In this document: one piece after another, positions 1 to 63,977 of the stretch
How positions within the stretch are numbered: position 1 is the first letter of the stretch
Layout: each line of letters starts with the position of its first letter
Assembly (NCBI GenBank): GCA_001780275.1
Contig: MFGB01000016.1
Location: 27,205-91,204, forward strand
Direction of reading: 5' to 3'
DNA from: Candidatus Falkowbacteria bacterium RIFOXYA2_FULL_47_19
GTDB lineage: Bacteria > Patescibacteriota > Patescibacteriia > Patescibacteriales > UBA12075
Length of the DNA: 64,000 nt
Made by a program: the position numbers and the translations under genes
Notes under the pieces: generated by a model
Seen by the model: only the letters and a program-made list of their open reading frames with translations
Databases searched by the model: none
What the model was told of the DNA's origin: nothing

Positions 1-1
1 G

Positions 2-9473: not shown

Positions 9474-9659
9474 GGTTACTGTATAAAAAATTTGTACAAT
9501 GATTCTAAAAACCCTTACTCTTGCTAAATTCGCGTTTATATTATAAAATATAGTTAGTTATTGGGGATAGTGTATACTGGTTTGATAACCTTGTAAAATG
9601 CGTTGTTTTATCGAAAATAACGTTTAAATACTGTTTATAAACTAAGTTACTAAATATAT

Positions 9660-38236: not shown

Positions 38237-38392
38237 TTATCACGAGCGCGGCGATCCTGGGATGAACCCGGGACGGCCCGAAGCGATTTATCGCGAACGG
38301 CCGGAGTACTGGCTCTATGACCCGCCGGCAACCATTCCCTAAAAGGAAAAGGTGCCCCTTCCAGCCCCGTAATACCGGGGAAAGATGATTTT
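38237..38392 (+). promoter_or_regulatory. SAM-I (S-box) riboswitch; core 38283-38392, preceded by a half-copy-like segment
   Basis: Core: UUUAUCgcgaaCGGCCGGAGuACUGGCuCuAUGAcccGCCGGCAACCauucc-cuaaaa-ggaaaaGGUGCCccUUCCAGccccg-uaaua-cgggGAAAGAUGA. This matches the GGAGGGACUGGCCC.AUGA..CCCGGCAACC...GGUGCCAAUUCC...AGAUAA pattern of SAM-I. Candidate promoter TTGCTT-17-TATAAT at 38177-38205. Lies upstream of metK. Confidence 0.75.
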
Positions 38393-49149: not shown

Positions 49150-50553
49150 TTATCGTTTTTTACGGAAATGTAATCCGGCGCCACCGTTGTCGCCGATTAC
49201 GATCGCGATTACCCAGCCAAGACCGCAAAAAAAGAAAGTAACGACATGGATGATTATTCTCTGTTTTTTTGTCGGCTGGACCTGGTCTACGAGATAAAGG
49301 AATCCCCGGCCATTGTCATCGGGATCTTTAGCCGACATACTGATCCGCTTAAAACGCGTTTCAGGGTCCTTAAGGCCGAAAATAATGTTCTCGAGCACTC
49401 CGTTACCGTAAAGATCTTCCGCCTTTCCTCCTTTCATTTTTCGTTTTACTTTTCCGATAATTTTTTCCGGATCGAGTTCGGTTCCGCGTAAACCATTATT
49501 CAGGGCCACAAGCATCATCTCGTTCCCGACGGGCATGCCGGTAAAAGACCTGGCCCAGATGATCTTTTCGCCATCCGTCAAAGAAACGGCGACGACTGAA
49601 TTCTTGCTTAAGGCGTTTATACCCTGCCGTTTCGTATCCTGCCAATAGGCTTTGAGCGCCAACGCGTACTTTTCTGGGTCGGAAGCGATCGAATCGTTCC
49701 GGACGATCACCAGGTGCATGTCGCCTTGAAGTTCCTTGCCGAAAGAAGCGTTCAGGTAGGACATCGCGTCGAACCAATCTTTGCGGTTCGGCGGATTTAA
49801 GCCGATGAAATAAACCTTATTCGCGTAATAGAAATCATAAATGTGCCTCTGGAATACCGGGAATAGTCCGCTTTTTTCGTAAACCTCGATATCGGCCGAG
49901 AAGCTTTGAAGTATTTTTTGTTCGCTCGCGTAAATATAATTATTATACTCCAATTTTTTCGTAACCGGTCCGGGTTCCCCAGCGGCGATCCGTTCTTTTA
50001 CTTTTGTCCAGAAAGGATGCTCTCCTGTTCCCGCGTTCGTAATCACGCGATCGGGGATCCTTTCGAAACGGCGCCATCTGTGCGCCTGGGGATTTTCCGG
50101 CAGTCTATGACGGTCTATCTCGTAAGTTCCGATCGTTGTCCTGGCGTAATAATTCATCTCTTTGGTAACGTAGGGACAATCATGGTATTCTGTTCTTTCG
50201 CAAGTTTCGCATTCTCCCTTGTCGTTACAATTACATTCGTAAGACACTGTATAAGGATCGCAGTCGTATTCCCATCGGCATGGTCCGTCGCGATAGCATT
50301 TGACGTCTTCCTTATGGGCCTCGGTTTCCCAACCCGACCAGAATTCGTTAAAGGTCACTAAATTTTTTTTGGCCATTTCCCAGCCCACATAAACCGAACC
50401 GGGCGCGGCCAATGAAGCTATTACGGCCATTACCAAGCCGTATTCTTTCCAGGTAATTTCTTTTTGTGTTTTTATGAATCGGTCAAAAATGAATTTTACG
50501 GCCAGTCCGGTAATAGCGGCTATTAATACCGAAATAAGGATGGTAAAATGCAT
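49150..50553 (-). CDS. hypothetical membrane protein with a Cys-rich extracytoplasmic knot
   Basis: TM helices at both termini. CYRDGPCRWEYDCDPYTVSYECNCNDKGECETCERTEYHDCPYV. I recognise no family. Confidence 0.6.
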   Translation of the reverse strand: MHFTILISVLIAAITGLAVKFIFDRFIKTQKEITWKEYGLVMAVIASLAAPGSVYVGWEMAKKNLVTFNEFWSGWETEAHKEDVKCYRDGPCRWEYDCDPYTVSYECNCNDKGECETCERTEYHDCPYVTKEMNYYARTTIGTYEIDRHRLPENPQAHRWRRFERIPDRVITNAGTGEHPFWTKVKERIAAGEPGPVTKKLEYNNYIYASEQKILQSFSADIEVYEKSGLFPVFQRHIYDFYYANKVYFIGLNPPNRKDWFDAMSYLNASFGKELQGDMHLVIVRNDSIASDPEKYALALKAYWQDTKRQGINALSKNSVVAVSLTDGEKIIWARSFTGMPVGNEMMLVALNNGLRGTELDPEKIIGKVKRKMKGGKAEDLYGNGVLENIIFGLKDPETRFKRISMSAKDPDDNGRGFLYLVDQVQPTKKQRIIIHVVTFFFCGLGWVIAIVIGDNGGAGLHFRKKR

Positions 50554-51639: not shown

Positions 51640-52209
51640 ATGATGCTGAAAAAAACATTAAAATTCATCTCTGAAACCCTCAAGGTGGTCATTATCTCTT
51701 TGGTGGTGATCCTGCCGGTAAGATATTTCCTCTTCCAGCCGTTCTACGTCATGGGCGCCTCGATGGAGCCCAGTTTTTTTGATCGTGAATATCTGATAAT
51801 AGACGAAATATCCTATCGTTTCAACGCGCCGGAGAGGGGAGACGTCGTGATCTTCCGCTATCCTGAAAATCAGCGGGAATTTTTCATCAAACGCATAGTC
51901 GGCCTGCCTGAAGAAGGAGTGGAAATCAGAAATGGTTCTATTTATGTATATAATAGCGATCATCAGAATGGCTTTATGCTTCCGGAGCCGTATTTAGGTA
52001 CCGATATCAGCACTGCCGGCGATACGGACGGGATCATCCGCCTTAAAGCCGATGAGTATTATGTTCTGGGCGATAACCGGGACTTTTCGCTGGATTCACG
52101 GGAGTTCGGTCCGGTTAAGTCAGATCTGATTAAGGGGCGGGCGTTTTTCCGGGGGTGGCCATTAAAACGCGTTGACGTTTTGCGGACCCCTGATTACGGG
52201 ATTAATTGA
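51640..52209 (+). CDS. lepB: signal peptidase I
   Basis: GASMEPSF (catalytic Ser box), RGDVVIF, KRIVGLPEE (Lys box) and GDNRDFSLDSREFG. Confidence 0.93.
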   Translation: MMLKKTLKFISETLKVVIISLVVILPVRYFLFQPFYVMGASMEPSFFDREYLIIDEISYRFNAPERGDVVIFRYPENQREFFIKRIVGLPEEGVEIRNGSIYVYNSDHQNGFMLPEPYLGTDISTAGDTDGIIRLKADEYYVLGDNRDFSLDSREFGPVKSDLIKGRAFFRGWPLKRVDVLRTPDYGIN

Positions 52210-52219
52210 ACCGGGGCGC

Positions 52220-52753
52220 TTATTCCCGATTACCGGTAGCGGCGCGATAATCGTCTACTTTGGATTTTAAAATTTTAGTTCCCTGATAAATGATCACGCT
52301 TACGTGATTAGGCGATTTGCCGGTCAAAGCGCAGATTTCGTTTATGCTCATATGATTAAGATAGCGGTATGATATTATTTTCCGGTAATTACTTTCAAGT
52401 TTCGAAAGGAGCCTGCGGAAAATAGCTAGTTTGATCTTCAGGTCAATTTCATGTTCCTGGGTGGGACGGATCGTAATTTCTTTCTCGCCTACCTCCTCAA
52501 GCCAAAGCGGAAGTTTGTTTTTTTGGCGGTAATGATCTATTATCAGGTTGTTAGCGACCATGTAAAGGAAATTTTTATGATCTTTGACGTGATTACCCTC
52601 CAGAGCCATATAATTCCAGGTTTTCAGGAAGACATCTTGCGTAAGATCCTTGGCCAGATCGTAGTTACTTACCCGAAAATAGATATGCCTAAGAATGGCC
52701 GGAGCATGATCTTTGTAAACTTGCGAAAATTTTTCTTTGATGTTATTATCCAT
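52220..52753 (-). CDS. ECF-type RNA polymerase sigma factor (sigma-70 regions 2 and 4)
   Basis: 177 aa. Region-2-like DLTQDVFLKTW...NFLYMVANNLIIDHYR. Region-4 HTH MSINEICALTGKSPNHVSVIIYQG. Confidence 0.85.
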   Translation of the reverse strand: MDNNIKEKFSQVYKDHAPAILRHIYFRVSNYDLAKDLTQDVFLKTWNYMALEGNHVKDHKNFLYMVANNLIIDHYRQKNKLPLWLEEVGEKEITIRPTQEHEIDLKIKLAIFRRLLSKLESNYRKIISYRYLNHMSINEICALTGKSPNHVSVIIYQGTKILKSKVDDYRAATGNRE

Positions 52754-52815
52754 GGCGGCGGCTTTAGTTTATTAATCGGCCGGATAGCTATGCCCGGAGG
52801 TAATCGCACAAACCT

Positions 52816-53649
52816 ATGAGACCCACAACTTTTATAATTTTAATATTGGTTTTTATCGCCGGTTTTTCGGGCGGATTTTACGCTTTATCCGTGATCGCCG
52901 AAAAACCTGAGCCGTCGGTTTCCGGCGGAACGCCAAACCCGGATTATGCCGCAAGGAGCCAAGCGGTCGCCGAAACGGATATCGAAACAGCGGATCGGAC
53001 GGAATTTTTCCGGAATGATCGCGCGGAGGTGGTCGGCGAAGCGACGACGACAAGGAAGGAAGAGGAGGAGCTGTCGCTGGAGGTCCCTTTCGTGTCCCAG
53101 GCGCCTCTGGGTGATTGGAGCGACCCGCGCCAGCAAGACGGTTGCGAAGAAGCTTCCGCGTTTATGGCCGTTCTTTGGGCCCGTAACGAGGCCGCGCCCA
53201 CCCCACCCCAGGTGCTTAAAGAGATCATTGCCATATCCGAGCATGAAAATGAAAAGTACGGCAGTTTTCACGACACTTCGGCGAAAGATACGGGCGAGCG
53301 GATTCTTATTGATTATTTCGGCCATGAGCGGTTCAAGGTAAAATACGATTTTAACGTCGATGACATAAAAAACGAACTCGCTCTCGGCCACCCGGTTATC
53401 ATACCGGCCGATGGGCGTAAGTTGAGGAATCCGTTTTATACTCCTCCCGGACCGGAGCGGCATATGCTCATAATCAAAGGTTATGATCCGGCCAAAAAAG
53501 AGTTCATTACGAACGATCCCGGCACGAGACAGGGGGAAAATTACCGTTATGGGGAGGAATTATTATTCGAAGCCATCAGGGATTACCCCACCGGAAATCA
53601 CGAAGTTCAAAACGGAGCCGGTAAAGCTATGATCGTAATTTTCAAATAA
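52816..53649 (+). CDS. secreted/membrane-anchored C39-like (peptidase_C39_2-type) cysteine peptidase domain protein
   Basis: N-terminal TM segment. VPFVSQAPLGDWSDPRQQDGCEEAS holds the putative catalytic Cys, with a downstream GHPVIIP His. Confidence 0.65.
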   Translation: MRPTTFIILILVFIAGFSGGFYALSVIAEKPEPSVSGGTPNPDYAARSQAVAETDIETADRTEFFRNDRAEVVGEATTTRKEEEELSLEVPFVSQAPLGDWSDPRQQDGCEEASAFMAVLWARNEAAPTPPQVLKEIIAISEHENEKYGSFHDTSAKDTGERILIDYFGHERFKVKYDFNVDDIKNELALGHPVIIPADGRKLRNPFYTPPGPERHMLIIKGYDPAKKEFITNDPGTRQGENYRYGEELLFEAIRDYPTGNHEVQNGAGKAMIVIFK

Positions 53650-53780
53650 ACCAATATTTAGCGTTACTTAAAAATATTACCACGGCTTGATTAACTTATA
53701 GTGAAAAAGAAGTTAGACTAACGATTTTTTTAATATCAGAAAAAAATAAAAACAGCGACCAGCGGATTTCCGCTATGTCG

Positions 53781-54830
53781 TTACTTGACCGTATTGCCGC
53801 CATTCTCCAGGGCGGTTTTTAGTTTTTCGTTGGCTCGATTTGCCCGGATAAATTCCACCTCCGGAAAAACAGACGCTAACACGGGGATCGCTCCGTAATA
53901 GACGTCGTTTATTAATACAAATTTAACGCCTTCGTTTATCGGAAGACCGGGTCCGCCAAGAACGATAAAACTGCCGCCTTTATAAACGGTGCCGTCGCCG
54001 GTACCGATGCCGGTTTTAAAAGCGAGACCGCTTTGAGGATCGGCGGAAAGCGGGGCGAGTCGGGGTATGTCCGGAAACGGTTCCTTTATAACCGCGAGCA
54101 GAAGATCAAGGTCGGCGGTCGGATCGTCGGTAGCTATCCCGAAGCCTTCGAATTTCGAGCCCACGTTCCAGTCGACCGGGTTAAAATAGAAAGAGAAATT
54201 AGCCTGCGGATATCCGGCGCGGAGGGCGGCCTCGTTTTTTAAACCCTCGATTTTTTCCGGGGATATATAAATATTTTCCGTTGCTGCCGGCGGATTTTTT
54301 CCCGGAACCGGATTTTCGGTATTTTCTCCGACCGTTTCACGTTCCTCGCCAATCGGTTTTTTATCCGCATCGTTTTTTTCGGATATTATCGCGTCCGACG
54401 AAATTTTTTCTTGGCGACCGGCGTTTATGAGTCCCTCGACGGTATTGCCGGGAATTTCCGATTCCGGATAGTAAGGAGATTCGATTTTTATTTTTTTCAA
54501 TCGGTCGATATTATCTTCCAGCTGTTCCGCCCCGCGAGCCTTGTCCAATTCGTTTTCCGACTCTATTTTTAAACGTTCCGTTTTTGATCTCCGCCTTTCT
54601 ATTTCTCCGAGATCCTCCCGTACCCGGTTCATTTCCCGGACTGTTTTCAGGGCATCCTTTACTTCGCGCCTTAATCTTTCTATGCCGCTTTCGTTGTTTC
54701 GGTTTTGCCGGAGGTTGTTACCGAGAAGGAGTTCTAAATCCGTCCCGGCGGCCCTTCCGGTTCCCCCGGCGACCAATGCTGTCGCCAGGAACAGGGAGTA
54801 TAAGGATTTTTTTAAGTTAAGTATTCTCAT
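53781..54830 (-). CDS. hypothetical secreted protein (coiled-coil N-terminal half)
   Basis: Signal peptide LFLATALVAGGTGRAAG, an R/E/K-rich coiled-coil segment, and a globular C-terminal half. Confidence 0.6.
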   Translation of the reverse strand: MRILNLKKSLYSLFLATALVAGGTGRAAGTDLELLLGNNLRQNRNNESGIERLRREVKDALKTVREMNRVREDLGEIERRRSKTERLKIESENELDKARGAEQLEDNIDRLKKIKIESPYYPESEIPGNTVEGLINAGRQEKISSDAIISEKNDADKKPIGEERETVGENTENPVPGKNPPAATENIYISPEKIEGLKNEAALRAGYPQANFSFYFNPVDWNVGSKFEGFGIATDDPTADLDLLLAVIKEPFPDIPRLAPLSADPQSGLAFKTGIGTGDGTVYKGGSFIVLGGPGLPINEGVKFVLINDVYYGAIPVLASVFPEVEFIRANRANEKLKTALENGGNTVK

Positions 54831-54954
54831 CGCGTAGACTTAATGGAATTTTTAATATTGCCATAATTTACCATATTATAATTACGGACGAATTAAAGGT
54901 TAATTTAAAGTCTATTTTTTTTTAATCATAAATTTTATTTCCGGTCGGTCAAAG

Positions 54955-54963
54955 TTATCCACA
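54955..54963 (+). promoter_or_regulatory. perfect DnaA box TTATCCACA
   Basis: Exact consensus. It is embedded in AAAGTTATCCACAAGCCTTAAAAA, which shares both flanks with the 12592-12671 element. Confidence 0.45.
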
Positions 54964-55286
54964 AGCCTTAAAAATATATAAAAATTAAAAAATTCCGCGG
55001 CCCGCGCGCTCCGGATTTTTATTTTTTTGATCGGACCGGCGTTTAAATTTAAGATTAATAATTAATTAAAATATAATACACGGATAGCGCTAACTTAAAA
55101 TAATATTAAAACTTATATTATTCCGCTTCAAAATCCGCCAAAACGCGATATTAAATTCGGATTAAAAAATATTTGACAAGCCAAAACGCATAGTATATCA
55201 TACCCCCGCATCCGGATATCGGGCTACCCGCCCCGGAGCGCATTAAAGATCGATTGCTAATTCATTAAGAAATAAATAAAAGCCTT

Positions 55287-56729
55287 ATGAAAAAAAATAT
55301 TCTTCTGGCGATTGGCGCTTTTATCGTTATCGGCCTCTTATTCGTTCCGCTCCTGGATTTTTTTTATGATCTGGGCGGCTTCGCTAAAGCCGATCCGCGG
55401 CCGTTTACCGTCGAGGGCTTATTCGCCGGGCGGAGCGGGGAGGGAGGGGAAATTTTTCCGGTAACCGTAGCCACTTCAGCGGAGGCCTATGAAGATTTGC
55501 CGGTCGGAGAGGTTTCCTTCCACGAGATTGCCGATCCGAAAGGGACCGTTGTCCTTATTCCGCAGAATCACCAGTATCCCGGTTCGGCCGCCGAGGATCC
55601 GAAAAACGATTCGGCGGAGAAAACCCAGGCGCAGATATACGATATCCTGAAGCACCTGCACGAAGAAAATGGCATCGATTTTATAATGACCGAGGGCGAC
55701 CTTAATGGCGACGTGCCTGCGGAAAAGCTCGCCGCGCTTGCCGAGAAGATCGATCTGCGCGACGAATTCGCCGTTCGAATCGAAAAATTGCGGGTTGAAG
55801 CCGACGGAAAATTAGATCCGGGAGCGGAAAAGAATCTATTAGTGAAAGCGGAAAAATTGATCGCCTCCCTGGACCGGGAGATAATACTGAAAGGCGCCCC
55901 CTATAAGCTTAAGGCCGAAGGCGTGGATTTTAAGCTTGTCGGGTCGGAAAACGAGGAGACTCGCGAAGAGTGCGCGGATATTGTCCGGAATTATATTTAC
56001 CAGCAAGACCAGTTAAAAACCTGCAACGGTTTGGCGGCGGGGAATGATTCATCGGTCTTGACTGGAAACGGTACAACCGCCGCTACGCAGGAGAAGTTGC
56101 GGGTTCTGAAAGATAAATTAAAAACGTTTAAGGACCTGCCTTTATCAGAAAGGCTTAAGGCCCTGCAAACGGAATTCAAATCAAAGGATCTTTCTTTCAT
56201 GATCGCGTCGGAAGACCTTAATGGCTTAACGGGCGGTAATTCGCTCCTGGAAAAGATCCGGCAGATCAAGACATTAAGCGCGGGCCAGGTGTCCCTTGAC
56301 AAAGAGTTTAGCGAGCTTTTGACGGTTGCTAACGCCCGCGGCGAAAAGGCTCTAACCGACAAATTAACGGCGGCGAAAGAAGCGTACCAGAAGATCGAAG
56401 ACTTTAAAAGCGGGAAGCAAGGCGCTTTGACCTCGTCTTCTCCTTCCAGAAGCGATAATCCCTACAAAACGATCACGGATCCGGTCAAGCTGCAAACGAT
56501 GATAAAAGAGTCGGAGGGTATGATCCAGACGGTGGTTATCGACCAAAGGAACCGGGAAACGGCGGTTAATTTCGTTTCGGCAATGGAGACGGCCGGAGAA
56601 AAAATCGGCATCCTGCAATTCGGCGCCGGCCACGAAGAAGGTCTGATCAAAGAATTGAATAACCAGGCTTTAAACGTCATCGTTATCAAGGCGGATGAGG
56701 TTTTAAGAAGAGAGAAGACCGGGGAATAA
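55287..56729 (+). CDS. hypothetical secreted/membrane-anchored protein
   Basis: N-terminal TM segment ILLAIGAFIVIGLLFVPLL. 480 aa. Promoter TTGACA-17-TATCAT at 55174-55202. Confidence 0.6.
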   Translation: MKKNILLAIGAFIVIGLLFVPLLDFFYDLGGFAKADPRPFTVEGLFAGRSGEGGEIFPVTVATSAEAYEDLPVGEVSFHEIADPKGTVVLIPQNHQYPGSAAEDPKNDSAEKTQAQIYDILKHLHEENGIDFIMTEGDLNGDVPAEKLAALAEKIDLRDEFAVRIEKLRVEADGKLDPGAEKNLLVKAEKLIASLDREIILKGAPYKLKAEGVDFKLVGSENEETREECADIVRNYIYQQDQLKTCNGLAAGNDSSVLTGNGTTAATQEKLRVLKDKLKTFKDLPLSERLKALQTEFKSKDLSFMIASEDLNGLTGGNSLLEKIRQIKTLSAGQVSLDKEFSELLTVANARGEKALTDKLTAAKEAYQKIEDFKSGKQGALTSSSPSRSDNPYKTITDPVKLQTMIKESEGMIQTVVIDQRNRETAVNFVSAMETAGEKIGILQFGAGHEEGLIKELNNQALNVIVIKADEVLRREKTGE

Positions 56730-56763
56730 TATTGATTATAAAAAACAGGTATACAGGTATATA

Positions 56764-56800
56764 GAGCGGCTCGGCTGATAATATCAGCCGGGCGCTTTTA
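56764..56800 (+). terminator. intrinsic terminator
   Basis: CGGCTGATA / TATCAGCCG stem extended by AGCG..CGCT, followed by TTTTA. Confidence 0.7.
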
Positions 56801-56811
56801 TTGACAAATCA

Positions 56812-57318
56812 TCAATTGAACAGCTGGTCTAAAATAAAAATATCGCCTAAGGCGCCGCCGTCCGCGTTGAGGATCTTACTGTCTTTCCGGAAGAGCCGGT
56901 CCAATACGAACAGATCGCCCGGGCCGAGAGGGCCGTTATCTTCGAACAGTCGGCCGTTATTCATGATCTGGTCCAGGATAATAAGATCGCCCAAGGACGT
57001 CCGGCCGGGTTCAAGAAGAGAATGTCCGTCAAACAGTTTATCCAAAACGAACAGATCGCCCAGATTCAAATTTTCGGCTTGTTCCATGAGCGCGTATTCT
57101 TCCGAGGCCGGGTCATAGCCGTTGATATCAGGACCGAATAAACGCCGGACAGCATCCTCCGCCGTCCCTTCGATCGGCTTGTTTTTATCGTCAGCGGAAT
57201 CGTCTATCTCCAGAGCGACAGTATCGGCCAATTCATGCATGCGCGCCGAAGCGGCCAAATACCAGAAATTAGAAGCGGTCATGATAATTATAGTAAGTAT
57301 GATAATCGGTCTTTTCAT
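56812..57318 (-). CDS. secreted LGDLFxLDxLF-repeat protein, paralog 1
   Basis: Signal/TM N-terminus. Motifs LGDLFVLDKLF, LGDLIILDQIM, PGDLFVLDRLF and LGDIFILDQLF. The start codon sits in a CATATG context. Confidence 0.75.
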   Translation of the reverse strand: MKRPIIILTIIIMTASNFWYLAASARMHELADTVALEIDDSADDKNKPIEGTAEDAVRRLFGPDINGYDPASEEYALMEQAENLNLGDLFVLDKLFDGHSLLEPGRTSLGDLIILDQIMNNGRLFEDNGPLGPGDLFVLDRLFRKDSKILNADGGALGDIFILDQLFN

Positions 57319-57388
57319 ATGGTTTACTTGTCTTTATACCTTAATAAATATTCCTTAAAATCGCGTGAATAAATTTTTGCGTGAAAAT

Positions 57389-57418
57389 AAAAAAGACGGC
57401 TATTTCGCCGTCTTTTTT
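57389..57418 (-). terminator. intrinsic terminator of paralog 2
   Basis: AAAAAAGACGGC-gaaata-GCCGTCTTTTTT on the minus strand, followed by ATTTT. Confidence 0.8.
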
Positions 57419-57439
57419 GATCCCTTTGTACTTCTTGGG

Positions 57440-57829
57440 TTATTTCGTTGTACTGTCGCTGCCGTCGAACAGGCTACCACCGTTGTCATTGAATAATCGA
57501 TCAAGGATAAAGAGCTCGCCTAGATTACTGCCACCCCCGATCCCTCCGCTACCGAAGAGTCGATCAAGCACGAAGAGGTCGCCCAAGTCGCTGCCGCCCC
57601 CGATCCCTCCGCTACCGAAGAGTCGATCAAGCACGAAGAGCTTGCCTAGATTATTATTATCATTATCCGAGCCGAAAATATCTCCGCCGTTGCCTCCGCC
57701 AAAAAGCTGATCCAGGATCAGGAGATCCCCCAAATTACTATTACTGCTGTTCAGGACATTAGCGGAAGCCGTTACCGGCATTAAAGTTACGGCCAAGATC
57801 GATAGACTTATTAGTATTTTGTTGATCAT
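57440..57829 (-). CDS. secreted LGDLFxLDxLF-repeat protein, paralog 2
   Basis: Signal peptide ..LMPVTASA. Motifs LGDLLILDQLF, LGKLFVLDRLF, LGDLFVLDRLF and LGELFILDRLF, separated by Gly-rich linkers. Contains an internal 63-bp tandem duplication. Confidence 0.8.
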   Translation of the reverse strand: MINKILISLSILAVTLMPVTASANVLNSSNSNLGDLLILDQLFGGGNGGDIFGSDNDNNNLGKLFVLDRLFGSGGIGGGSDLGDLFVLDRLFGSGGIGGGSNLGELFILDRLFNDNGGSLFDGSDSTTK

Positions 57830-57911
57830 ATGATTTTGGCTTTAAGCCTTAATTAATAATTAATCCCGGGAGAAATCTTATTATTGAGAATGATTCCCGT
57901 ATATATAAAAA

Positions 57912-57935
57912 GACGGTTGGGGAAATTTTTATGAG
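57912..57935 (-). promoter_or_regulatory. CTCAT-N15-CGTC bipartite promoter-like motif upstream of paralog 2
   Basis: The minus strand reads CTCAT aaaaatttccccaac CGTCTTT. The geometry matches the three ATCAT-N15-CGTC copies. Confidence 0.45.
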
Positions 57936-57962
57936 AGGATTACAATCTCTTTACGATAGATT

Positions 57963-58008
57963 AAGAATAAAATAAGAGACGAGATATCTCGTCTCTTATT
58001 TTATTCTT
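57963..58008. terminator. 46-nt perfect palindrome (bidirectional terminator)
   Basis: AAGAATAAAATAAGAGACGAGAT followed directly by its exact reverse complement ATCTCGTCTCTTATTTTATTCTT. Confidence 0.75.
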
Positions 58009-58024
58009 ATCTCAAGATAAATAT

Positions 58025-58657
58025 CTAATTGACCGCCAGTGAACCGGGCGCTACCGGAATTTGTTCGATATTGGCGTTGGTAATCCCTAAGCCCCTATCC
58101 TCAATGAGGTTGAACGCGCCGGCCGCGCCGATTACCGGTATAATGCTCCTGTCCGTCGGATTGACGTAATAAAGCTTGCCGCTGTCCTCGACCTTAAGGA
58201 GGAATTTGCCGGCCAAGCGGGACGGAGCAGTACCGCCGAACGCGTCAAAATTCGCGTTCGTAATACCGGTGGCTTGTTCCCCCATGATGGTCAGGGCAGC
58301 CTGCGGTCCGTTCAGGTAATAGCGCTGCGTGTCTGCCGGGTTTACGTACCAGGCTCGTCCATCAGCTTCGGTCTGGATAAGGATCCGGCCGGACAGCCGC
58401 TGTCTTAAGGGAGTCGGCGCCACCGCTACCGGTGCTGTCGTTTGCTGCGGAAATAGCTGGTCCAGGATGAACAGGTCGCCTAAATTAGTTTGCGAGTCGT
58501 CACCTACATTGAACAGCCTATCCAGCGCGAACAGATCGCCGATATTGCCCGCGCCGTTTAGACCGTTAAGAATTCCGGCGGCGGCGGCCGGAGCCATCGG
58601 CGACATAACGCCCATTACGACTGCCGCGACCGCGAAAACGGAAATTATTCTCTTCAT
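58025..58657 (-). CDS. secreted LGDLFxLDxLF-repeat protein, paralog 3, fused to two GEAWYV-type modules
   Basis: Signal peptide ..SPMAPAAAAG. Motifs IGDLFALDRLF and LGDLFILDQLF, then GRILIQTEADGRAWYVNPADTQRYYLNGPQAALTIMGEQATGIT and GKFLLKVEDSGKLYYVNPTDRS...LIEDRGLGIT. Confidence 0.8.
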   Translation of the reverse strand: MKRIISVFAVAAVVMGVMSPMAPAAAAGILNGLNGAGNIGDLFALDRLFNVGDDSQTNLGDLFILDQLFPQQTTAPVAVAPTPLRQRLSGRILIQTEADGRAWYVNPADTQRYYLNGPQAALTIMGEQATGITNANFDAFGGTAPSRLAGKFLLKVEDSGKLYYVNPTDRSIIPVIGAAGAFNLIEDRGLGITNANIEQIPVAPGSLAVN

Positions 58658-58860
58658 ATGATTGCATCTTGATACGAGGACGAAAGTTTATTCCGAAATA
58701 AAACTTCGGAATTATTTTTCGATCCTCGATGTTCGATTGTTTAACAACGCTTCCCCCGACCTTTGTTTTCACCCTTGAAACCTTAAAAAGATTTCAGGGA
58801 AGCGATTTGTTCTTTAAAGATATAATTCTAATTCTTTTATTATGACCCCATAATATATAT

Positions 58861-58884
58861 GACGCTTGATTTTAATATTATGAT
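58861..58884 (-). promoter_or_regulatory. ATCAT-N15-CGTC bipartite promoter-like motif upstream of paralog 3
   Basis: The minus strand reads ATCAT aatattaaaatcaag CGTCATA, inside a 60-nt block homologous to 59629-59688. Confidence 0.5.
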
Positions 58885-58890
58885 TGAATT

Positions 58891-58928
58891 AAATTAAGAG
58901 ACCGGGGTACACCACGGTCTCTTAATTT
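58891..58928 (-). terminator. terminator of paralog 4
   Basis: AAATTAAGAGACCG-10 nt-CGGTCTCTTAATTT. Confidence 0.7.
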
Positions 58929-58950
58929 ATTTTATCCGACTAGTTCTAAT

Positions 58951-59469
58951 TTAGAGAGCATCGCCGCCGAAAAGCTGATCCAGAATAAAGATATCGCCCA
59001 GATTGGCGTTATCGCCATTGCCGAATAATCTGCTCATGATGAAAAGCTCTCCCAAACCGCCGCTGCCGGTATCTAGTATGCCGCCGCTCTCTCCGGAAGT
59101 GCCATCGTTAAAGAGCTGATCCAGGATAAAGATATCGCCCAGATTGGCGTCGGTGTCATCGCCGCCGAAGAGCCTGTCCAAAACGAATAATTCTCCCAGG
59201 TCGCTGCTGCCGCTGCCGGTATCTAGTATGCCGCCGCTCTCTCCGGAAGTGCCATCGTTAAAGAGCTGATCCAGGATAAAGATATCTCCCAGATTCGCGT
59301 TGGTGTCATCGCCGCCGAAGAGCCTGTCCAAAACGAATAATTCTCCCAAGTCGCTGCTGCCGCTGCCGCTATCGAGTATGCCCGCGTTAGCCGTAACCGG
59401 CGCGGTTATGACGGCGCCGATTGCCAGAGCGAATACCGCTAGACTGGCAATTATTTTTTTTCCTACCAT
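58951..59469 (-). CDS. secreted LGDLFxLDxLF-repeat protein, paralog 4 (three tandem 50-aa units)
   Basis: Likely start is MVGKKIIASLAVFALAIGAVITAPVTANA at 59469; the track uses GTG at 59514. The unit GILDxGSGSSDLGELFVLDRLFGGDDTxANLGDIFILDQLFNDGTSGESG occurs twice nearly identically (150-bp DNA repeat, 59083-59382), followed by a diverged third unit. Confidence 0.8.
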   Translation of the reverse strand: MVGKKIIASLAVFALAIGAVITAPVTANAGILDSGSGSSDLGELFVLDRLFGGDDTNANLGDIFILDQLFNDGTSGESGGILDTGSGSSDLGELFVLDRLFGGDDTDANLGDIFILDQLFNDGTSGESGGILDTGSGGLGELFIMSRLFGNGDNANLGDIFILDQLFGGDAL

Positions 59470-59652
59470 ATGTTTAGTTTTTAGGTTTATTAACTTGATT
59501 ACGATCTTCTTCACGACCTTTGGTCGAGGGCAAGGTCATCGGCAGGGGTCATGTCCTTATTTGACCTTTTTTAGATGAAGAAGTTAATAGAATTATATCT
59601 TCAAGAATTGATTATTTATTTTATTTATCTTTTATCGCCCCCTAAATATTAT

Positions 59653-59676
59653 GACGGATAACTTTCATATTATGAT
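59653..59676 (-). promoter_or_regulatory. ATCAT-N15-CGTC bipartite promoter-like motif upstream of paralog 4
   Basis: The minus strand reads ATCAT aatatgaaagttatc CGTCATA. Confidence 0.5.
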
Positions 59677-59721
59677 TATGTTAAATTCATGCGTTTTTAG
59701 TCTTACCTGTGGATATTAGCC

Positions 59722-59884
59722 AAATAAAAATCTTCCCCCGACCTTTAAAAACGGTTACGCTTCCCTTTGATATGTTAATATCTTTAAAGAGGCTTATAAC
59801 GCGGGAAGCGCAACCGGGGGAAGATTTAAGACCCTGTCTTCAGATCCCGAGAAAGGCAGGGTTTGTGTTTATAAGCCTCCTAAA
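59722..59884 (-). ncRNA. candidate small RNA (about 160 nt) between an ATCAT-N15-CGTC motif and an intrinsic terminator
   Basis: Nested helices TCTTCCCCCG / CGGGGGAAGA (59731-40 / 59815-24) and CGCTTCCC / GGGAAGCG (59758-65 / 59803-10), followed on the minus strand by TTTTTATTT. A competing 11-bp helix GAGGCTTATAA / TTATAAGCCTC (59789-99 / 59869-79) sequesters an AGGAGG. Extra hairpin at 59832-59862. No start codon after the SD-like sequence. Confidence 0.5.
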
Positions 59885-59890
59885 ATCTAA

Positions 59891-59914
59891 GACGGTCCCC
59901 GTTATTATTATGAT
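59891..59914 (-). promoter_or_regulatory. ATCAT-N15-CGTC bipartite promoter-like motif upstream of the candidate sRNA
   Basis: The minus strand reads ATCAT aataataacggggac CGTCTTA, directly after the terminator at 59921-59955. Confidence 0.5.
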
Positions 59915-59920
59915 AGGATT

Positions 59921-59955
59921 AAAAACAAAAAGCCGCCCGCTAAAAGCCGGGCGGC
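59921..59955 (-). terminator. intrinsic terminator of the 59963..60376 gene
   Basis: GCCGCCCG-8 nt-CGGGCGGC, with TTTTTGTTTTT on the minus strand. Confidence 0.8.
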
Positions 59956-59962
59956 AACGATT

Positions 59963-60376
59963 TTATGGAGTTGGCCGGATGATTAAAAATTGTAAATCCG
60001 GATCCGGTTCAATGGACACGATGCAGATATCATTGGGGCCGGTAACCCAGATGATGTCTTTCGGGTGTTTCGTCCGATATTTTTTCCGCAAGTATCCTTC
60101 AGACCCAAAGGAGTGGACAACCTTGCCCTTGAGCACGAGACGATAGATGATTTCGCCCTTGCCCTTGTGGAGAGCCGCGTTTTTAAGGGCTTGGGGGATG
60201 CCGTCTATTTCCGCGACGGTTTTGTTCGGGCGGGAAAATATCCAGACGGGTTGAGGATGGCTCATCTCCTCTTTGATTTCATGGGTTATAAGCGCGAAAA
60301 TGCTCAATATCGCCCCGACGATCATTGCTGTCTTCACGAAAAAATACAAACCATTAATGATTTTGAAAGAGCGCAT
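59963..60376 (-). CDS. hypothetical membrane-anchored protein
   Basis: 137 aa with an N-terminal TM helix (TAMIVGAILSIFALI), followed by its own terminator. Confidence 0.55.
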   Translation of the reverse strand: MRSFKIINGLYFFVKTAMIVGAILSIFALITHEIKEEMSHPQPVWIFSRPNKTVAEIDGIPQALKNAALHKGKGEIIYRLVLKGKVVHSFGSEGYLRKKYRTKHPKDIIWVTGPNDICIVSIEPDPDLQFLIIRPTP

Positions 60377-60567
60377 CTTCGTTCCTTTCTATGATTTAAG
60401 GTAAAATGTGAGTTTTATATTTAATTATAATAGCATATAAGTTAAATTTTGTCAAGTTGTTACTTTTTTGTTAAAAATTCGTTATAAATATTGTTAGCCA
60501 AACAAATAAATATATATTATAATATATACTAGAGCGTGGCTCTAGTTATGAAATTAACTTAAATTTT

Positions 60568-61131
60568 ATGAATATCGGCGTGGATGAAATATCGGCGATA
60601 AAACAATGCCAAGCCGGAGATCCGGAAAAATTCGGCGTTTTATACGATAAATATATAAAAAAGATCTACGATTTCGTTTATTACAAGACCCATCACCGGG
60701 AAACGGCCGAAGATCTTACTTCCAGAATTTTCATGAAAGCTCTGGAGAATATCGGCGGTTTTGATCCCGGCAAAGGCACTTTTCAGGCCTGGATCTATAG
60801 GATCGCGCGCAATACGGTCATTGATCATTACCGGACGTCCAGAGCGCACGCGAATATCGAAGACGTTTGGGATCTGTCCGGGAATGATGATCCGGAACGG
60901 GATATTGACGCGAAAACCAAACTCGAAAAAGTTAGAAAGTATTTGGCGAAACTGAAACCGATCGAACGGGATATAGTGATCATGCGCGTTTGGCAGGGGA
61001 TGAATCACAAAGAGATCGCGGCCGTAATGGGCAAAACGGAGGCGGGAGTTAAAATGGCTTTTTCGCGGACGATAACAAAGCTCCGGGAAGAGATGCCGTT
61101 GGCGATCTTTCTTTCCTTTTTTATGCAGTGA
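60568..61131 (+). CDS. ECF-type RNA polymerase sigma factor
   Basis: Region 2 (AEDLTSRIFMKALENI..FQAWIYRIARNTVIDHYR) and a region 4 HTH (MNHKEIAAVMGKTEAGVKMAFSR). The 5' UTR hairpin ACTAGAGC-gtg-GCTCTAGT lies at 60530-60548. Confidence 0.88.
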   Translation: MNIGVDEISAIKQCQAGDPEKFGVLYDKYIKKIYDFVYYKTHHRETAEDLTSRIFMKALENIGGFDPGKGTFQAWIYRIARNTVIDHYRTSRAHANIEDVWDLSGNDDPERDIDAKTKLEKVRKYLAKLKPIERDIVIMRVWQGMNHKEIAAVMGKTEAGVKMAFSRTITKLREEMPLAIFLSFFMQ

Positions 61132-61201
61132 TCTTGTTACCGTGAATGATCTTTATCGTATAATTTAAGCATAAGGAATTAATAATTAAGCGATTAAATT
61201 T

Positions 61202-62929
61202 ATGAATGACACAATCAGGCAAATCCTCGATGACATCTATAAGCTTGATCCGGAACTTAAGAAACATGAGCCCGAGCTTATAAAGGTCGTGGACAACCTC
61301 TTAAAGACGCGGCCGGAGACGGAATATAATGATGATTTCGTTAAAGCTCTTCGCGCCGATATCATGGCCAAAGCCCAGTCCCTGAAGGAGAAACCGGTAA
61401 CGCTCAGGTTTTGGCAATTTCCGAAACTGTCTTATTTTTTCGGGGGAGCGATCCTGGGCGTCGCCTTGGTTATAGCGGCCGTCAGTTATTTTGATCGCCC
61501 CGGTAGTCTCGCCTTAAAGAGCGAACCGGATGCTGTGCGGCCGCGGATCGATCGTTTGGCAAGCGGCGCTTTCGGTTCTTTGGCCGGACTTGAATCGGAC
61601 GGCGGCAAATCAGCTTCCGATCTGGGCGAAAGCGGCACTATGTCCAGCCGGCAGAATTCACCGCCGCCGGCCGCCGAACAGGAAGCGGCAATGGAAGATA
61701 CCGCTTCTTTTTACGGTACCGACGCCGATAAGGGGTCGGCTAAAATAGCCCCGGAAATGGCGCCCTTGGGTATGGGCGGAGGAGGCGGCCTGGACGCACG
61801 GTCGATGATCGTTCCGCCTTACGAATGGACGAATTATAAATATGAATACACCGGAGAAGCTTTAGCGGCTCCGGCGGCGGAATTGCCGGTTTACAAGCGG
61901 AAGATAGATCCGAAAGTGCCCGGCGATCTGACGGGCCTTATCGACGGCGGGCAGACGCCTTATCTAGACTTGAATAAATTCCGGAATTTGAGAATGACGA
62001 GTTTAAGCGCGAGCGAAGACCGGAATTACGGTTATACGCTTTATTTCGATTTTTTGAACGGAATGGCCAACATCGACATGCAATGGGAAAAATGGCCTCA
62101 GCCCGGACGCGATTGCCGGGATCAAGCCTGCTTTGACGATCTGCGCCTGAAAGCGGAAGATGTGCCGGCCGATCAGGAACTTATCCGGATAGCCGATTCT
62201 TTTTTAGGGGAATACGGTATCGATAAGTCGGATTTCGGACCGGGCGAAGTGCGGAACGAATGGCGGACGATGTACGGCGCGGCGGAGATCAAGAGCGATA
62301 TCTGGATCCCGGATACCGTTACGGTCGTTTATTCGCTTAAGATCAAGGATCAAACCGTATACGAAGAATCCGGTTATACCACTGGCCTTAATGTCAGCGT
62401 CAATATACGGGAAAAAAGAGTGTCGAATATGTACGGCCTTAAGACCCTTAATTTTGAAAGTTCCGATTACGCGATGGAAACCGACACCGATCTGATCAGG
62501 CGTCTGGCCGAACGCGGCGGTAATTGGTGGGGACCGGGTATTATGGATTCGGGCAAAACCGTAACCGTTAAATTAGGCGCGCCGAAGGTCGAACTTATAT
62601 CTTATTGGCGATATGACCAGAAGAGCGGTCGCGGCGAAGAACTTTATATTCCCGCTTATATTTTTCCGATACTCAACAAAGAGGATGCCCCGAACCTGTA
62701 TCGCGACAACATCGTTGTCCCCTTGGTTAGGGAAATAATCGATGAGCAGGAAAAGAGATGGCAGGAGAATCCGCCCATGCCGCTTATAGAACCTATGCTT
62801 AAGGAGGAGGGGGCCGCCGGTTCCGGCGGCGGCGAAACCGGCGCGAATGCCGGCGGATCCGTCGCGCCGGCCGAACCCATGATCTTAGGAATTCCGGAGG
62901 CGTCTCGGGAAGATGCTCCCGTCAAATAG
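61202..62929 (+). CDS. putative anti-sigma factor-like single-pass membrane protein with a large extracytoplasmic domain
   Basis: Located immediately downstream of the ECF sigma. A cytoplasmic N-terminal segment of about 75 aa precedes one TM helix (YFFGGAILGVALVIAAVSYF) and an external region of about 480 aa. The role is assigned by architecture and position only. Confidence 0.45.
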   Translation: MNDTIRQILDDIYKLDPELKKHEPELIKVVDNLLKTRPETEYNDDFVKALRADIMAKAQSLKEKPVTLRFWQFPKLSYFFGGAILGVALVIAAVSYFDRPGSLALKSEPDAVRPRIDRLASGAFGSLAGLESDGGKSASDLGESGTMSSRQNSPPPAAEQEAAMEDTASFYGTDADKGSAKIAPEMAPLGMGGGGGLDARSMIVPPYEWTNYKYEYTGEALAAPAAELPVYKRKIDPKVPGDLTGLIDGGQTPYLDLNKFRNLRMTSLSASEDRNYGYTLYFDFLNGMANIDMQWEKWPQPGRDCRDQACFDDLRLKAEDVPADQELIRIADSFLGEYGIDKSDFGPGEVRNEWRTMYGAAEIKSDIWIPDTVTVVYSLKIKDQTVYEESGYTTGLNVSVNIREKRVSNMYGLKTLNFESSDYAMETDTDLIRRLAERGGNWWGPGIMDSGKTVTVKLGAPKVELISYWRYDQKSGRGEELYIPAYIFPILNKEDAPNLYRDNIVVPLVREIIDEQEKRWQENPPMPLIEPMLKEEGAAGSGGGETGANAGGSVAPAEPMILGIPEASREDAPVK

Positions 62930-62993
62930 GCTTAGTAGACAATAAACGGATATAATAAAATATCCCGCGAAATCGCGGGATATTTTATTTTGA

Positions 62994-63977
62994 TCATTCG
63001 AATTTTATGACCGTGATCTCCGATCGGCCGCTCGTGCGCATGGGCGGACCCCAGGTGCCGGTACCGGGAGAAGAATAAGCCGTGAGATCGCCGTTGGTAT
63101 TTAAACCCGTATGATATTTGCCGAAGATCAGGCGGGTAATAAGGCCAAAAGGAAAAAGCTGGCCGCGGTGGGTGTGTCCGGAAAGGACGAGATCGACTTT
63201 CGCGGCGCTTATATCGCCGATGTCGTTCGGCGCGTGTTTTAAGAGGATCGTTGGCTGGTCCGGATCGAGTCCTTTGAGCAAACCGGCAGGATCCTCCTTT
63301 TCGCCCCGATCGGCATAGTCGAGTCCGGCGATAGTCAGGCCGTCAGCCATCGCCGTTTCGGAACGCAGATAGCGGACGCCGGTGCCGGCGAGAGCGGCCG
63401 CGACCTTATCGCGGCCGATATAAGTTTCATGGTTGCCGTTCACGAAATAAACGCCGTAAGAAGCCGTGATATCTTTTAAAGGAGCGGCCAGACCGGTTAG
63501 ATCGGGCCCGGTGCCGTCGAAAAGATCGCCGGTAATGAAAACTATATCCGGATTCAAAGAGTTGATGTTTTTCGTAAGCGCCGTGAACCATCTTATTCCG
63601 TAAATCGCGCCGAGATGAAGATCTGTTATCTGTACAGCGGTTTTGCCCGACCAATCCGGGGGCAGGTTTTTTATTTTTACGTTAATATTTTTAATCAGGG
63701 GATAGCGCGCATTATAGATGCCGTAACCGGATACGATGATCGCCAGCAGGCAGAGGACCGCTGTAAGCCGGCGTGGATCGATAGTAAAGCGCGATAGCGA
63801 ACTAAGTCCGTAGATAACCCAACCGGCGGTCGCGGCCAGGAGAAGATTCGCGAAGAGCCCGTACCAGACAGAAGAAGCGATGTAAAGCCATTCAGTCGCC
63901 TGATTTTCGATCAATCGGTTAAGCAATATCGTTACGATAAAGCTCGTGGCCAGACCGTAAAGAACGAGGCCCAGCAT
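62994..63977 (-). CDS. membrane-bound metallophosphoesterase (calcineurin-like, YkuE-type)
   Basis: N-terminal TM helices, then the motifs DLHLG, GDLFDG, GNHE and GHTHRG. The true start could lie further upstream, near the window edge. Confidence 0.85.
   Translation of the reverse strand: MLGLVLYGLATSFIVTILLNRLIENQATEWLYIASSVWYGLFANLLLAATAGWVIYGLSSLSRFTIDPRRLTAVLCLLAIIVSGYGIYNARYPLIKNINVKIKNLPPDWSGKTAVQITDLHLGAIYGIRWFTALTKNINSLNPDIVFITGDLFDGTGPDLTGLAAPLKDITASYGVYFVNGNHETYIGRDKVAAALAGTGVRYLRSETAMADGLTIAGLDYADRGEKEDPAGLLKGLDPDQPTILLKHAPNDIGDISAAKVDLVLSGHTHRGQLFPFGLITRLIFGKYHTGLNTNGDLTAYSSPGTGTWGPPMRTSGRSEITVIKFE

Follow-up and report, generated by a model that had tools for sequence, protein, structure and literature searches.

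The window considered here, a stretch of 64,000 nucleotides from Candidatus Falkowbacteria bacterium RIFOXYA2_FULL_47_19, contains at positions 52220–62929 a group of genes which a preliminary description had taken as one accessory envelope locus placed under two extracytoplasmic function (ECF) sigma factors. The comparison with other genomes shows that the conserved unit is not the whole of these 10.7 kilobases (kb), but a Patescibacteria module made of genes for secreted proteins with LGDLF repeats and of a convergent gene for a 480-residue membrane-anchored protein (h480), usually accompanied by an ECF sigma factor of the type encoded at 52220–52753 (sigA). What stands of the earlier view is a conserved, envelope-directed module that usually has an ECF sigma factor; of the two sigma factors, only the sigA type travels along with it. 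No description of the parts of this module was found in Pfam, NCBIfam, Rfam or the searchable literature, and the module is put forward as a candidate new cell-surface or peptide system.

Conservation of the module among Patescibacteria

The loci used for comparison were sampled in two ways, either through the repeat protein or R3 (one of the four repeat proteins of the window, R1 to R4), or through h480, by means of a metagenome scan and of contig look-ups of database homologues. Compared loci bear L-numbers, with L001 coming from a near-identical strain and L003 from a diverged member of Falkowbacteria, and database proteins bear P-numbers. The repeat-protein search returned 31 relatives, and all those having a source name come from Patescibacteria. 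The full gene order of the window is present in L003. The more distant L004, L006/L007 and L108 retain only the repeat genes, a convergent gene coding for 416–497 residues and one ECF sigma gene; the convergent gene is a homologue of h480 (36–42% identity) and the sigma factor is of the sigA type (31–44%, tblastn). Loci L009, L010 and L011, obtained from a genome-collection scan with the R3 alignment, carry this repeat/h480/sigA trio too. As a whole, for the loci sampled by the repeat protein or R3, a convergent h480 gene and a sigA-type sigma factor were found in eight out of eight independent lineages (window/L001, L003, L004, L006, L009, L010, L011 and L108).

Concerning the h480-carrying lineages, a convergent LGDLF-type repeat gene lies 3' of h480 in 19 of about 21. 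It is missing from L099, a contig of 1.9 kb, and from L104, where a distant homologue of 544 residues has a different-looking context. Strongly diverged repeats, such as NPISQWIVLSGLF (L090), LGELIVLDNLF (L092 and L105) and LEDLFVLKALFDD (L096), are still encoded downstream of h480 and on the opposite strand, and LysM-containing forms of the repeat gene are found downstream of h480 in L095, L097 and L106. All the repeat-motif matches in the h480/repeat loci are located within 4 kb of the h480 3' end. As controls, 75 Patescibacteria loci devoid of h480 (1.13 Mb) gave no strict repeat motif and 11 loose matches. Most of the 79 loci retrieved from genomes with the R3 alignment were due to a widespread domain of R3 (WYVNP, described below); 5 were true repeat loci, and the remainder were used as controls.

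An ECF sigma gene, mostly of the sigA type, is present within about 3 kb of the module in 14 of the approximately 21 lineages. Orthologues of sigA with 26–44% identity (94% in L003) adjoin the module in L003, L004, L006, L009, L010, L011, L097, L102, L107 and L108. The pairing of h480 with the repeat genes and their convergent orientation persist down to 31–35% protein identity, and nearly every lineage has different genes on either side of the module, which indicates that the trio moves as a unit. In the window, genes for a type I signal peptidase and for a sugar transferase lie at one end, and one for a metallophosphoesterase at the other.

Every gene of the 10.7-kb stretch that was named in the preliminary description is present in its place, according to the open reading frame (ORF) listing and the profile searches. 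Three proteins of the window are 100% identical to those of Candidatus Falkowbacteria bacterium RIFOXYB2_FULL_47_14 (P0020, P0032 and P0078), P0020 being identical to R1. The features of the module and its candidate control elements in the window are the following:

52220–52753, minus strand: sigA, ECF sigma factor, 177 residues (Sigma70_r2 and Sigma70_r4_2; TIGR02937)
55173–55201, plus strand: sigma-70-type promoter-like site upstream of the h480 gene, TTGACA-17-TATCAT, 11 of 12 positions matching the consensus (consensus match only)
55287–56729, plus strand: h480, 480 residues, N-terminal anchor, core member of the module by synteny
56812–57318, minus strand: R1, LGDLF-repeat protein, 168 residues, signal peptide or anchor, two matches to the repeat pattern and two degenerate units
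57440–57829, minus strand: R2, LGDLF-repeat protein, 129 residues, signal peptide and four units
57912–57934, minus strand: ECF-like promoter motif of R2, TCATAA-N13-CGTC, kept in L003 with a changed spacer
58025–58657, minus strand: R3, 210 residues, signal peptide, two LGDLF units and a doubled C-terminal 'WYVNP' domain
58658–58852, minus strand: structured 5' leader of R3, with AAAGGTCG at 58757–58764 and the flanking helix CGCUUCCCU/GGGGAAGCG
58861–58883, minus strand: ECF-like promoter motif of R3, TCATAA-N13-CGTC
58951–59469, minus strand: R4, 172 residues from the ATG at 59469, signal peptide and six LGDLF units
59470–59641, minus strand: 5' leader of R4, with AAAGGTCG at 59514–59521 and the helix CUUCUUCAU/GUGAAGAAG
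59653–59675, minus strand: proximal ECF-like promoter motif of R4, TCATAA-N13-CGTC
59712–59880, minus strand: orphan copy of the leader, without ORF, with AAAGGTCG at 59739–59746 and the 13-bp helix AAAUCUUCCCCCG/CGGGGGAAGAUUU followed by a U-run
59891–59913, minus strand: distal ECF-like promoter motif ahead of the orphan leader; in L003 several spacer positions differ, and TCATAA and CGTC are kept

Repeat proteins, candidate promoters and leader RNA

The four repeat proteins together hold 14 hydrophobic-acidic units of 11 residues, of the form [LI]G[DEK][LI][FL]x[LM][DS]x[LI]F. When all six frames were scanned with a pattern made slightly stricter, 13 units were obtained, all on the minus strand at 56847–59346, and none elsewhere in the 64 kb. 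The proteins have Sec-type signal peptides, e.g. ...APVTANA/G in R4 and ...PVTASA/N in R2, with either a signal peptide or an anchor in R1. The canonical form of the family is a signal peptide followed by two pairs of units, in which an R-type unit (LGDLFVLDRLF) is joined by a linker to a Q-type unit (LGDLFILDQLF). Within a pair, the linker has about 8–12 residues with a conserved 'IL ... T', and the protein often ends directly after the Q-type unit; the linkers between pairs are rich in G, S, N and D and vary in length. No Pfam, NCBIfam, PHROG or PADLOC family was found for the LGDLF repeat, and the literature search gave no relevant paper.

Of the repeat genes of the module, R3 is the best conserved, with full-length orthologues of 44–53% identity in L004, L006, L009, L010 and L011. 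Some other members of the repeat family are fused to LysM, a peptidoglycan-binding domain, and some of the repeat proteins are probably wall-associated, since they carry WYVNP or LysM fusions. The number of units varies in R4, with six in the window vs. four in the near-identical L001 (10001–10369; P0001 and P0002, 122 residues), P0003 having 125 residues; a tandem block of 50 residues has been gained or lost, and unit copy number therefore changes quickly. For R4, the ATG at 59469 is the most likely start, in agreement with the homologues P0001–P0003, in place of an earlier call of 58951–59514. The GTG at 59514, with AAAGG as its Shine-Dalgarno sequence, was rejected as the start: this GTG falls within the leader RNA, and in L003 stop codons interrupt the in-frame extension. 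Elsewhere, the AAAGG-containing leader element is found 43–107 nucleotides from the start codons, which argues against a Shine-Dalgarno role.

As a separate observation, the C-terminal half of R3 (58025–58400) is a doubled domain of about 55 residues with the motif 'G.aWYVNP...RyyL', of which 336 relatives were found in genomes of Patescibacteria. It had no match in Pfam or PDB, and the R3 profile gave nothing usable against PDB; the domain is widespread, undescribed and presumably surface-located. Many records of metagenome-assembled genomes (MAGs) named 'uncultured Gammaproteobacteria bacterium' (L009, L014, L015, L019 and others) carry WYVNP genes of the Patescibacteria type, and L009 also has the LGDLF module; the organism names of these records look unreliable.

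Both sigma factors of the window, sigA and the one encoded at 60568–61131 (sigB), contain only the sigma-70 regions r2 and r4_2 and score 75.4 and 99.2 bits with TIGR02937 (cut-off of 42.9), which places them among the ECF (group 4) factors. The pattern TCATAA-N13-CGTC is located upstream of three of the four repeat genes (R2, R3 and R4) and of the orphan leader. A CGTC at such a spacing is typical of the -10 elements of ECF promoters, and we infer on this ground that sigA reads the promoters of the repeat genes, as a candidate specificity. The window has four matches, all ahead of repeat genes or of the orphan leader, vs. 0.16 expected, a count that is not independent, as the pattern was derived from the same four sites; the independent check is conservation in other lineages. 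All four motifs are kept in L003 with altered spacers, and relaxed matches are found ahead of repeat genes in L009, L011 and L102; the 1.13 Mb of controls gave three strict and seven relaxed matches. By inspection, a terminator hairpin is present behind each of R4, R3 and R2. The -35-like TCATAAT(A) also recurs about 38 nucleotides downstream, at the predicted transcript start (GGGGTCATAATAA), as seen at 58840–58890 in the window and at about 9470–9520 in L102. This direct repeat brackets the -10 and could be the binding site of a regulator, instead of or besides a sigma contact.

Across lineages, most repeat genes carry a structured 5' leader in which the invariant AAAGGUCG is located 43–107 nucleotides before the start codon. 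Most transcripts would begin about 12 nucleotides after CGTC, with GGG(Y)CAUAAUAA. The AAAGGUCG motif immediately precedes the 3' strand of a helix that differs in sequence by gene and lineage in a covarying manner, as illustrated by CGCUUCCCU/GGGGAAGCG, CUUCUUCAU/GUGAAGAAG, AUCCUCUG/CAGAGGAU, AAUCUUACC/GGUAAGAUU and CGCCUUCCCG/CGGGAAGGUG. This helix was examined by an anchor-based scoring with controls and shuffles: the helix beside AAAGGTC is stronger in leaders than at 120 other AAAGGTC sites (Mann-Whitney p 9e-6) and beats the shuffles in 11 of 18 leaders (Fisher p 8e-9). Thirteen of the 16 non-coding sites combining AAAGGTCG with the helix in 1.4 Mb are within modules. The alignment of 22 leaders with MAFFT followed by RNAalifold gave no pair, because a variable insert shifts the helices out of register, and a trimmed alignment left the 3' strands out of register. 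The 5' end of the leader can be matched in several lineages with the segment just upstream of AAAGGUCG, a pairing that would form a pseudoknot.

The candidate small RNA (sRNA) previously described at this locus is a predicted structured element (59712–59880), identified here as an orphan copy of the repeat-gene leader with the distal promoter motif ahead of it. Its folding z-score is -4.57, with none of 200 shuffles as stable, and that of the R3 leader is -4.0. The orphan leader is conserved in L003, and similar orphans are present in L004 (about 8230–8360) and L011 (about 9460–9590); such copies could be sRNAs standing on their own or what is left of repeat genes that were lost. With Rfam 15, neither leader nor orphan had a match at the gathering threshold, and a search of 56700–60600 in E-value mode returned noise only (best hit of 30 bits vs. 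56).

The h480 protein and the proposed working of the module

The product of 55287–56729 had been listed as a large secreted hypothetical protein. The ORF is real and has an N-terminal hydrophobic segment, and 'N-terminally membrane-anchored' is the better description of the protein. Sequence matches above threshold were absent from Pfam, NCBIfam and PDB, the last of these having been searched with the profile as well. The family is a compact one: a search of 1.84 billion proteins (E ≤ 1e-3) found 222 representatives at 50% identity. When members were scanned singly, the commonest weak match was PF01963 (TraB_PrgY_gumN), found in 27 of 43 and in 11 of 35 members (38 of 78), with 2.9e-5 and 6.9e-5 as best E-values. 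The part aligned is always the same: positions of about 193–261 of the 263 in the PF01963 profile correspond to the C-terminal '...RN.E.A...QFGAGHE.GL..L' (GAGH) segment of h480. Residues H95, E136, R421 and H449 are invariant in 78 members and E221 and E450 nearly so, all of them at or just after predicted strands, and they would fit the set of catalytic His and Glu residues reported in the Tiki/Ere superfamily (PMC6254334). The AlphaFold2 model (predicted local distance difference test score, pLDDT, of 83) has a transmembrane helix at the N-terminus and six strands that alternate with helices, and it includes a long insertion of helical structure. Its best PDB fold matches are two entries of the erythromycin esterase EreC, 6xcs and 6xcq (E 0.019 and 0.03), followed by unrelated coiled coils at E > 0.4. 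A motif-by-motif correspondence between h480 and the Escherichia coli TraB-family protein YbaP, judged by eye, is only suggestive. From the PF01963 matches, the invariant residues and the fold matches, it is fairly likely that h480 is a divergent hydrolase of the TraB/PrgY/GumN type (Tiki superfamily). PrgY has been proposed to bind the hydrophobic 7-residue pheromone cCF10 outside the cell and to degrade it there (PMC7117660), and Tiki/TraB peptidases have been noted in peptide-maturation loci (PMC8939145).

The model towards which we lean, on balance, is that the ECF sigma factor drives the secreted repeat proteins and that a Tiki-like ectoenzyme acts on them. The parts would be one to four genes for Sec-secreted repeat proteins, h480 (400–500 residues), usually a sigA-type sigma factor, and the structured 5' leader. 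In this scheme, sigA would drive the repeat genes from the TCATAA-N13-CGTC promoters, the leader RNA (AAAGGUCG and covarying helix) would add post-transcriptional control, and the exported repeat proteins would remain at the wall or membrane. There, the Tiki-like ectodomain of h480 would act on them, whether through cuts between the units or through degradation or trimming, in a manner resembling that of the enterococcal PrgY/TraB, which have been proposed to limit short hydrophobic pheromone peptides. The earlier reading, of an ECF-controlled system of secreted and possibly processed repeat proteins, holds in outline, with a different enzyme, h480, in place of the C39-like one and with one of the two sigma factors. 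Since this predicted dedicated extracytoplasmic hydrolase adjoins the repeat genes, processing of the repeat proteins is still a live idea; any proteolysis of them can be proposed only tentatively.

A number of observations weigh against this model, which as a whole is built on sequence and gene neighbourhood. Concerning h480, none of its members reaches the gathering score of PF01963 (13–23 bits vs. 26.8), and the fold match to EreC is weak, with a template-modelling (TM) score of 0.17–0.20. The alignment of h480 against YbaP had a probability of 1.3% with hhalign, and hmmsearch with the 78-sequence h480 profile gave YbaP a score of -0.9, which was equalled or exceeded by 73 of 2000 shuffles, over an unexpected aligned region. 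The substrate of h480 need not be a protein, given that the superfamily holds esterases and haem-binding proteins. On the side of expression, h480 and the repeat genes are not co-transcribed, as they lie on opposite strands and h480 has a sigma-70-like promoter. No candidate for an anti-sigma gene adjoins sigA in any lineage examined, a Crp-type regulator takes the place of the sigma factor in L092 and L105, and no regulator is nearby in L090 and L098. The AAAGGTCG leader is missing from R1 and R2. As for the repeats, the alternation of R- and Q-type units with a conserved linker suggests a folded pair of 35 residues rather than released 11-mers, and the AlphaFold2 model of R2 (23 homologues; pLDDT 44.7) has only a short helix over each unit and no confident fold.

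A further-reaching form of the model is that the LGDLF units are freed by the Tiki/TraB-like h480 as short hydrophobic peptides. In an episymbiotic Patescibacteria cell, these would serve either for signalling or as effectors directed at the host or active on membranes, and their amount would be set by the ECF sigma factor and by the new cis-regulatory leader RNA (AAAGGUCG and helix) with its free-standing sRNA copies. We regard this form as unlikely.

The main rival is a surface coat, for which a reasonable though lesser case can be made. According to it, the repeat proteins are uncleaved structural or adhesive components, whose multivalent hydrophobic units bind the wall, the membrane or a host cell. 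Protein h480 would then be a partner without proteolytic activity, for instance a receptor, a chaperone, or a hydrolase such as an esterase with a wall or lipid component as its substrate, and the ECF sigma factor would tune the amount of coat. The LysM domain of some members, the doubled domain of R3, common in Patescibacteria surface proteins, and the conserved R/Q pairs with their conserved linker, as expected for a folded repeat, all agree with a coat. The long helical insertion of h480 and the composition of the Tiki/Ere superfamily, which includes esterases and the haem-binding protein ChaN (PMC6254334), agree with it as well. Against it, the 11-mer is conserved at nearly every position across paralogous units and across lineages in which the other proteins have 30–45% identity, while the linkers drift, which is more like a ligand or recognition motif than a scaffold. 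Moreover, AlphaFold2 predicted no stable fold for the repeats, and the invariance of His and Glu residues in h480 speaks for an enzyme rather than a passive receptor.

A second alternative is that there is no functional module, the arrangement being synteny inherited in one clade and the upstream motifs being ordinary promoter or 5' untranslated features of highly expressed genes. It is in line with the restriction of all examples to Patescibacteria and with the presence of a sigB-like gene, a membrane protein and a Metallophos gene near the module in both the window and L006. Nevertheless, it is made very improbable by flanks that differ in almost every lineage while the convergent h480/repeat pairing persists to 31–35% identity, by strongly diverged repeats that still adjoin h480, and by a AAAGGTCG-plus-helix element that is almost confined to repeat genes.

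The C39-like peptidase, other neighbours and known systems

The remaining genes of the stretch, together with the signal peptidase gene that adjoins sigA, are the following:

51640–52209, plus strand: type I signal peptidase, S26 (Pfam Peptidase_S26, E 1.1e-39), adjoining the sigA gene
52816–53649, plus strand: membrane-anchored Peptidase_C39_2 protein, 277 residues (PF13529, E 8.8e-11)
53781–54830, minus strand: secreted protein of 349 residues, ORF with an N-terminal hydrophobic segment and without above-threshold family match
59963–60376, minus strand: single-pass membrane protein of 137 residues, with its own sigma-70-like promoter and terminator
60568–61131, plus strand: sigB, second ECF sigma factor, 187 residues (Sigma70_r2 and Sigma70_r4_2; TIGR02937)
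61202–62929, plus strand: single-pass membrane protein of 575 residues, 71 nucleotides behind sigB

The C39-like cysteine peptidase of this list had been tentatively proposed to cut LGDLF polyproteins after Gly-Gly, the system being controlled by both ECF sigma factors. The domain is real (43 bits vs. 24 for Peptidase_C39_2, PF13529), follows an N-terminal hydrophobic anchor and is not catalytically dead: Q95, C110, H216 and N233/D234 are invariant in 18 homologues, and the protein is probably active because this Gln, Cys, His and Asn-Asp set is invariant. In favour of the proposal, GG occurs after some units and, on inspection, positions -4 and -7 are hydrophobic there, like those of double-glycine leaders, and in L102 a C39_2 gene lies 3.2 kb from the module. 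Nevertheless, a C39_2 gene is found within 10 kb of the module in only 3 of the approximately 21 lineages (window, L003 and L102), and in the MAG holding L011 the orthologue is on a different contig, among unrelated genes. The C39_2 family has at least 1611 members, many of them with 55–60% identity over the domain, vs. 31 matches for the repeat protein in the same kind of search, and it also far exceeds the h480 family. The GG and G-rich tails taken as cleavage sites do exist after some units, but they are a minority feature in the family alignment and are not conserved, and the repeat proteins have Sec signal peptides, not double-glycine leaders. Moreover, the match is to PF13529 and not to the transporter-fused PF03412, the protein being free-standing and the locus having no ATP-binding cassette (ABC) transporter. 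PF13529 was classed as a lytic domain in a phage-lysin survey, and the protein has a weak endolysin match in PHROGs; PDB sequence searches with the protein and its profile gave nothing usable.

The C39_2 gene is thus independent of the module, its linkage to the repeat genes being rejected by synteny from both sampling directions, and cleavage of the repeats by this enzyme is highly unlikely. We conclude that it is a common Patescibacteria envelope enzyme, located by chance beside the module in this genus. Some Patescibacteria C39_2 proteins (P0087, P0119, P0189, P0159 and P0186) are fused to DUF192 (PF02643) or to SanA/DUF218 (PF02698), and these fusions hint at a role of the family in envelope maintenance.

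The C39_2, 349-residue, 137-residue and sigB/575-residue genes are neighbours in this genus and not members of the module. The 349-residue protein was found only in the window, L001 and L003, with a weak match (23%) at the same relative position in L011; the 137-residue protein only in the window, L001, L002 and L003; and the 575-residue protein only in the window, L001 and L003. Neither the 349-residue nor the 575-residue protein has a family match in Pfam, NCBIfam or PHROGs. Outside the window and L003, no close orthologue of sigB lies beside the module. The 575-residue protein, formerly called anti-sigma-like, is indeed a single-pass protein encoded behind sigB; as no anti-sigma family was matched, it is an anti-sigma candidate by position and topology, and the two genes probably form a separate sigma/anti-sigma unit. 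PADLOC returned no defence-system match, except for a weak and irrelevant one for sigB. In L006 (1–3914), a sigB-like gene and a membrane protein are present about 8 kb from the module and near a Metallophos gene, as at 60568–63977 in the window. This proximity in the window and in L006 (Parcubacteria) is either a residual larger-scale synteny or a second linked unit. As for the S26 signal peptidase, it also adjoins the sigA-type sigma factor in L003, L004 and L009, and its membership in the module is not established.

Elsewhere in the window, a riboswitch for S-adenosylmethionine (RF00162, 51.6 bits vs. 44.4) is located at 38285–38391 on the plus strand, upstream of the ORF 38547–39596. An ORF of 1721 residues (14–5179, plus strand) lies at the window edge, positions 1–4000 having 57–58% G+C vs. 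about 47% elsewhere in the window, a marked shift in composition. A protein of 467 residues (49150–50553, minus strand) is hydrophobic at both ends, has a Cys-rich stretch (CYRDGPCRWEYDCDPYTVSYECNCNDKGECETCERTEYHDCPY) and no family match; among the fetched loci, its only homologue is in the near-identical strain.

Among known systems, the pheromone-shutdown proteins PrgY/TraB of Enterococcus faecalis conjugative plasmids would resemble h480 in that a membrane-bound extracytoplasmic domain of the Tiki type is encoded beside short hydrophobic secreted peptide sequences; the recurrent PF01963 similarity and the invariant His and Glu add to this likeness. They differ in that h480 is below the family threshold, has an N-terminal anchor and a helical insertion of about 150 residues, and is chromosomal. 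Its candidate substrates are multi-unit Sec proteins and not fragments of lipoprotein signal peptides, and there are no conjugation or pheromone-receptor genes nearby. With EreC/Bcr135 and the Tiki metalloproteases, h480 would share the alpha/beta core and the His/Glu residues at strand ends (PMC6254334), EreC being the best structural match of the model; yet this match is weak (E about 0.02, TM about 0.2) and there is no macrolide context. The double-glycine systems with peptidase-containing ABC transporters (PCAT) or ABC-transporter maturation and secretion (AMS) proteins, such as LahT (PF03412), also combine a papain-like Cys/His peptidase in the locus with GG, here found after some units. 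However, the peptidase of the window belongs to PF13529, is free-standing, anchored outside the membrane and not ABC-fused, and is not co-inherited with the repeat genes.

Multi-copy peptide precursors, such as the cyanobactin precursor PatE, fungal Kex2-processed repeat peptides and yeast alpha-factor, consist of repeated conserved cores and variable linkers. The LGDLF proteins likewise have conserved short units with variable low-complexity linkers, a strain-variable copy number and a candidate processing enzyme encoded alongside. In contrast to these precursors, the LGDLF system has no modification enzymes and no identified conserved cleavage motif, its units are paired, several members are wall-binding fusions, and cleavage is putative. 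Finally, the ECF regulons of the Bacillus SigW/SigM/SigV type are comparable as regards a group-4 sigma gene beside genes for exported proteins and a CGTC -10 at an ECF-like spacing; the differences are that sigA has no adjacent anti-sigma gene in any lineage and that the -35 TCATAA is unlike the usual AAC motif.

One consequence of the above concerns annotation: the label of bacteriocin-type C39 processing is wrong here, and it could spread to the many Patescibacteria genomes that carry the common C39_2 gene. More generally, Patescibacteria make up a large share of bacterial diversity, have tiny genomes and in many cases live attached to other cells; no function has been assigned to the majority of their surface and secreted proteins. 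The module provides a compact, recurrent and testable set, made of a new repeat-protein family, a probable new branch of a hydrolase superfamily, a partner ECF sigma factor with a candidate promoter, and a candidate new leader RNA. The known members of the superfamily to which h480 probably belongs include regulators of peptide and protein signals, PrgY/TraB acting with pheromones and Tiki with Wnt. If peptides were indeed released, the candidate phyla radiation would have its first described system resembling peptide signalling, together with a new RNA family. If h480 acts on the repeat proteins, the module would offer an initial way into the study of regulated surface remodelling or of peptide signalling in Patescibacteria.

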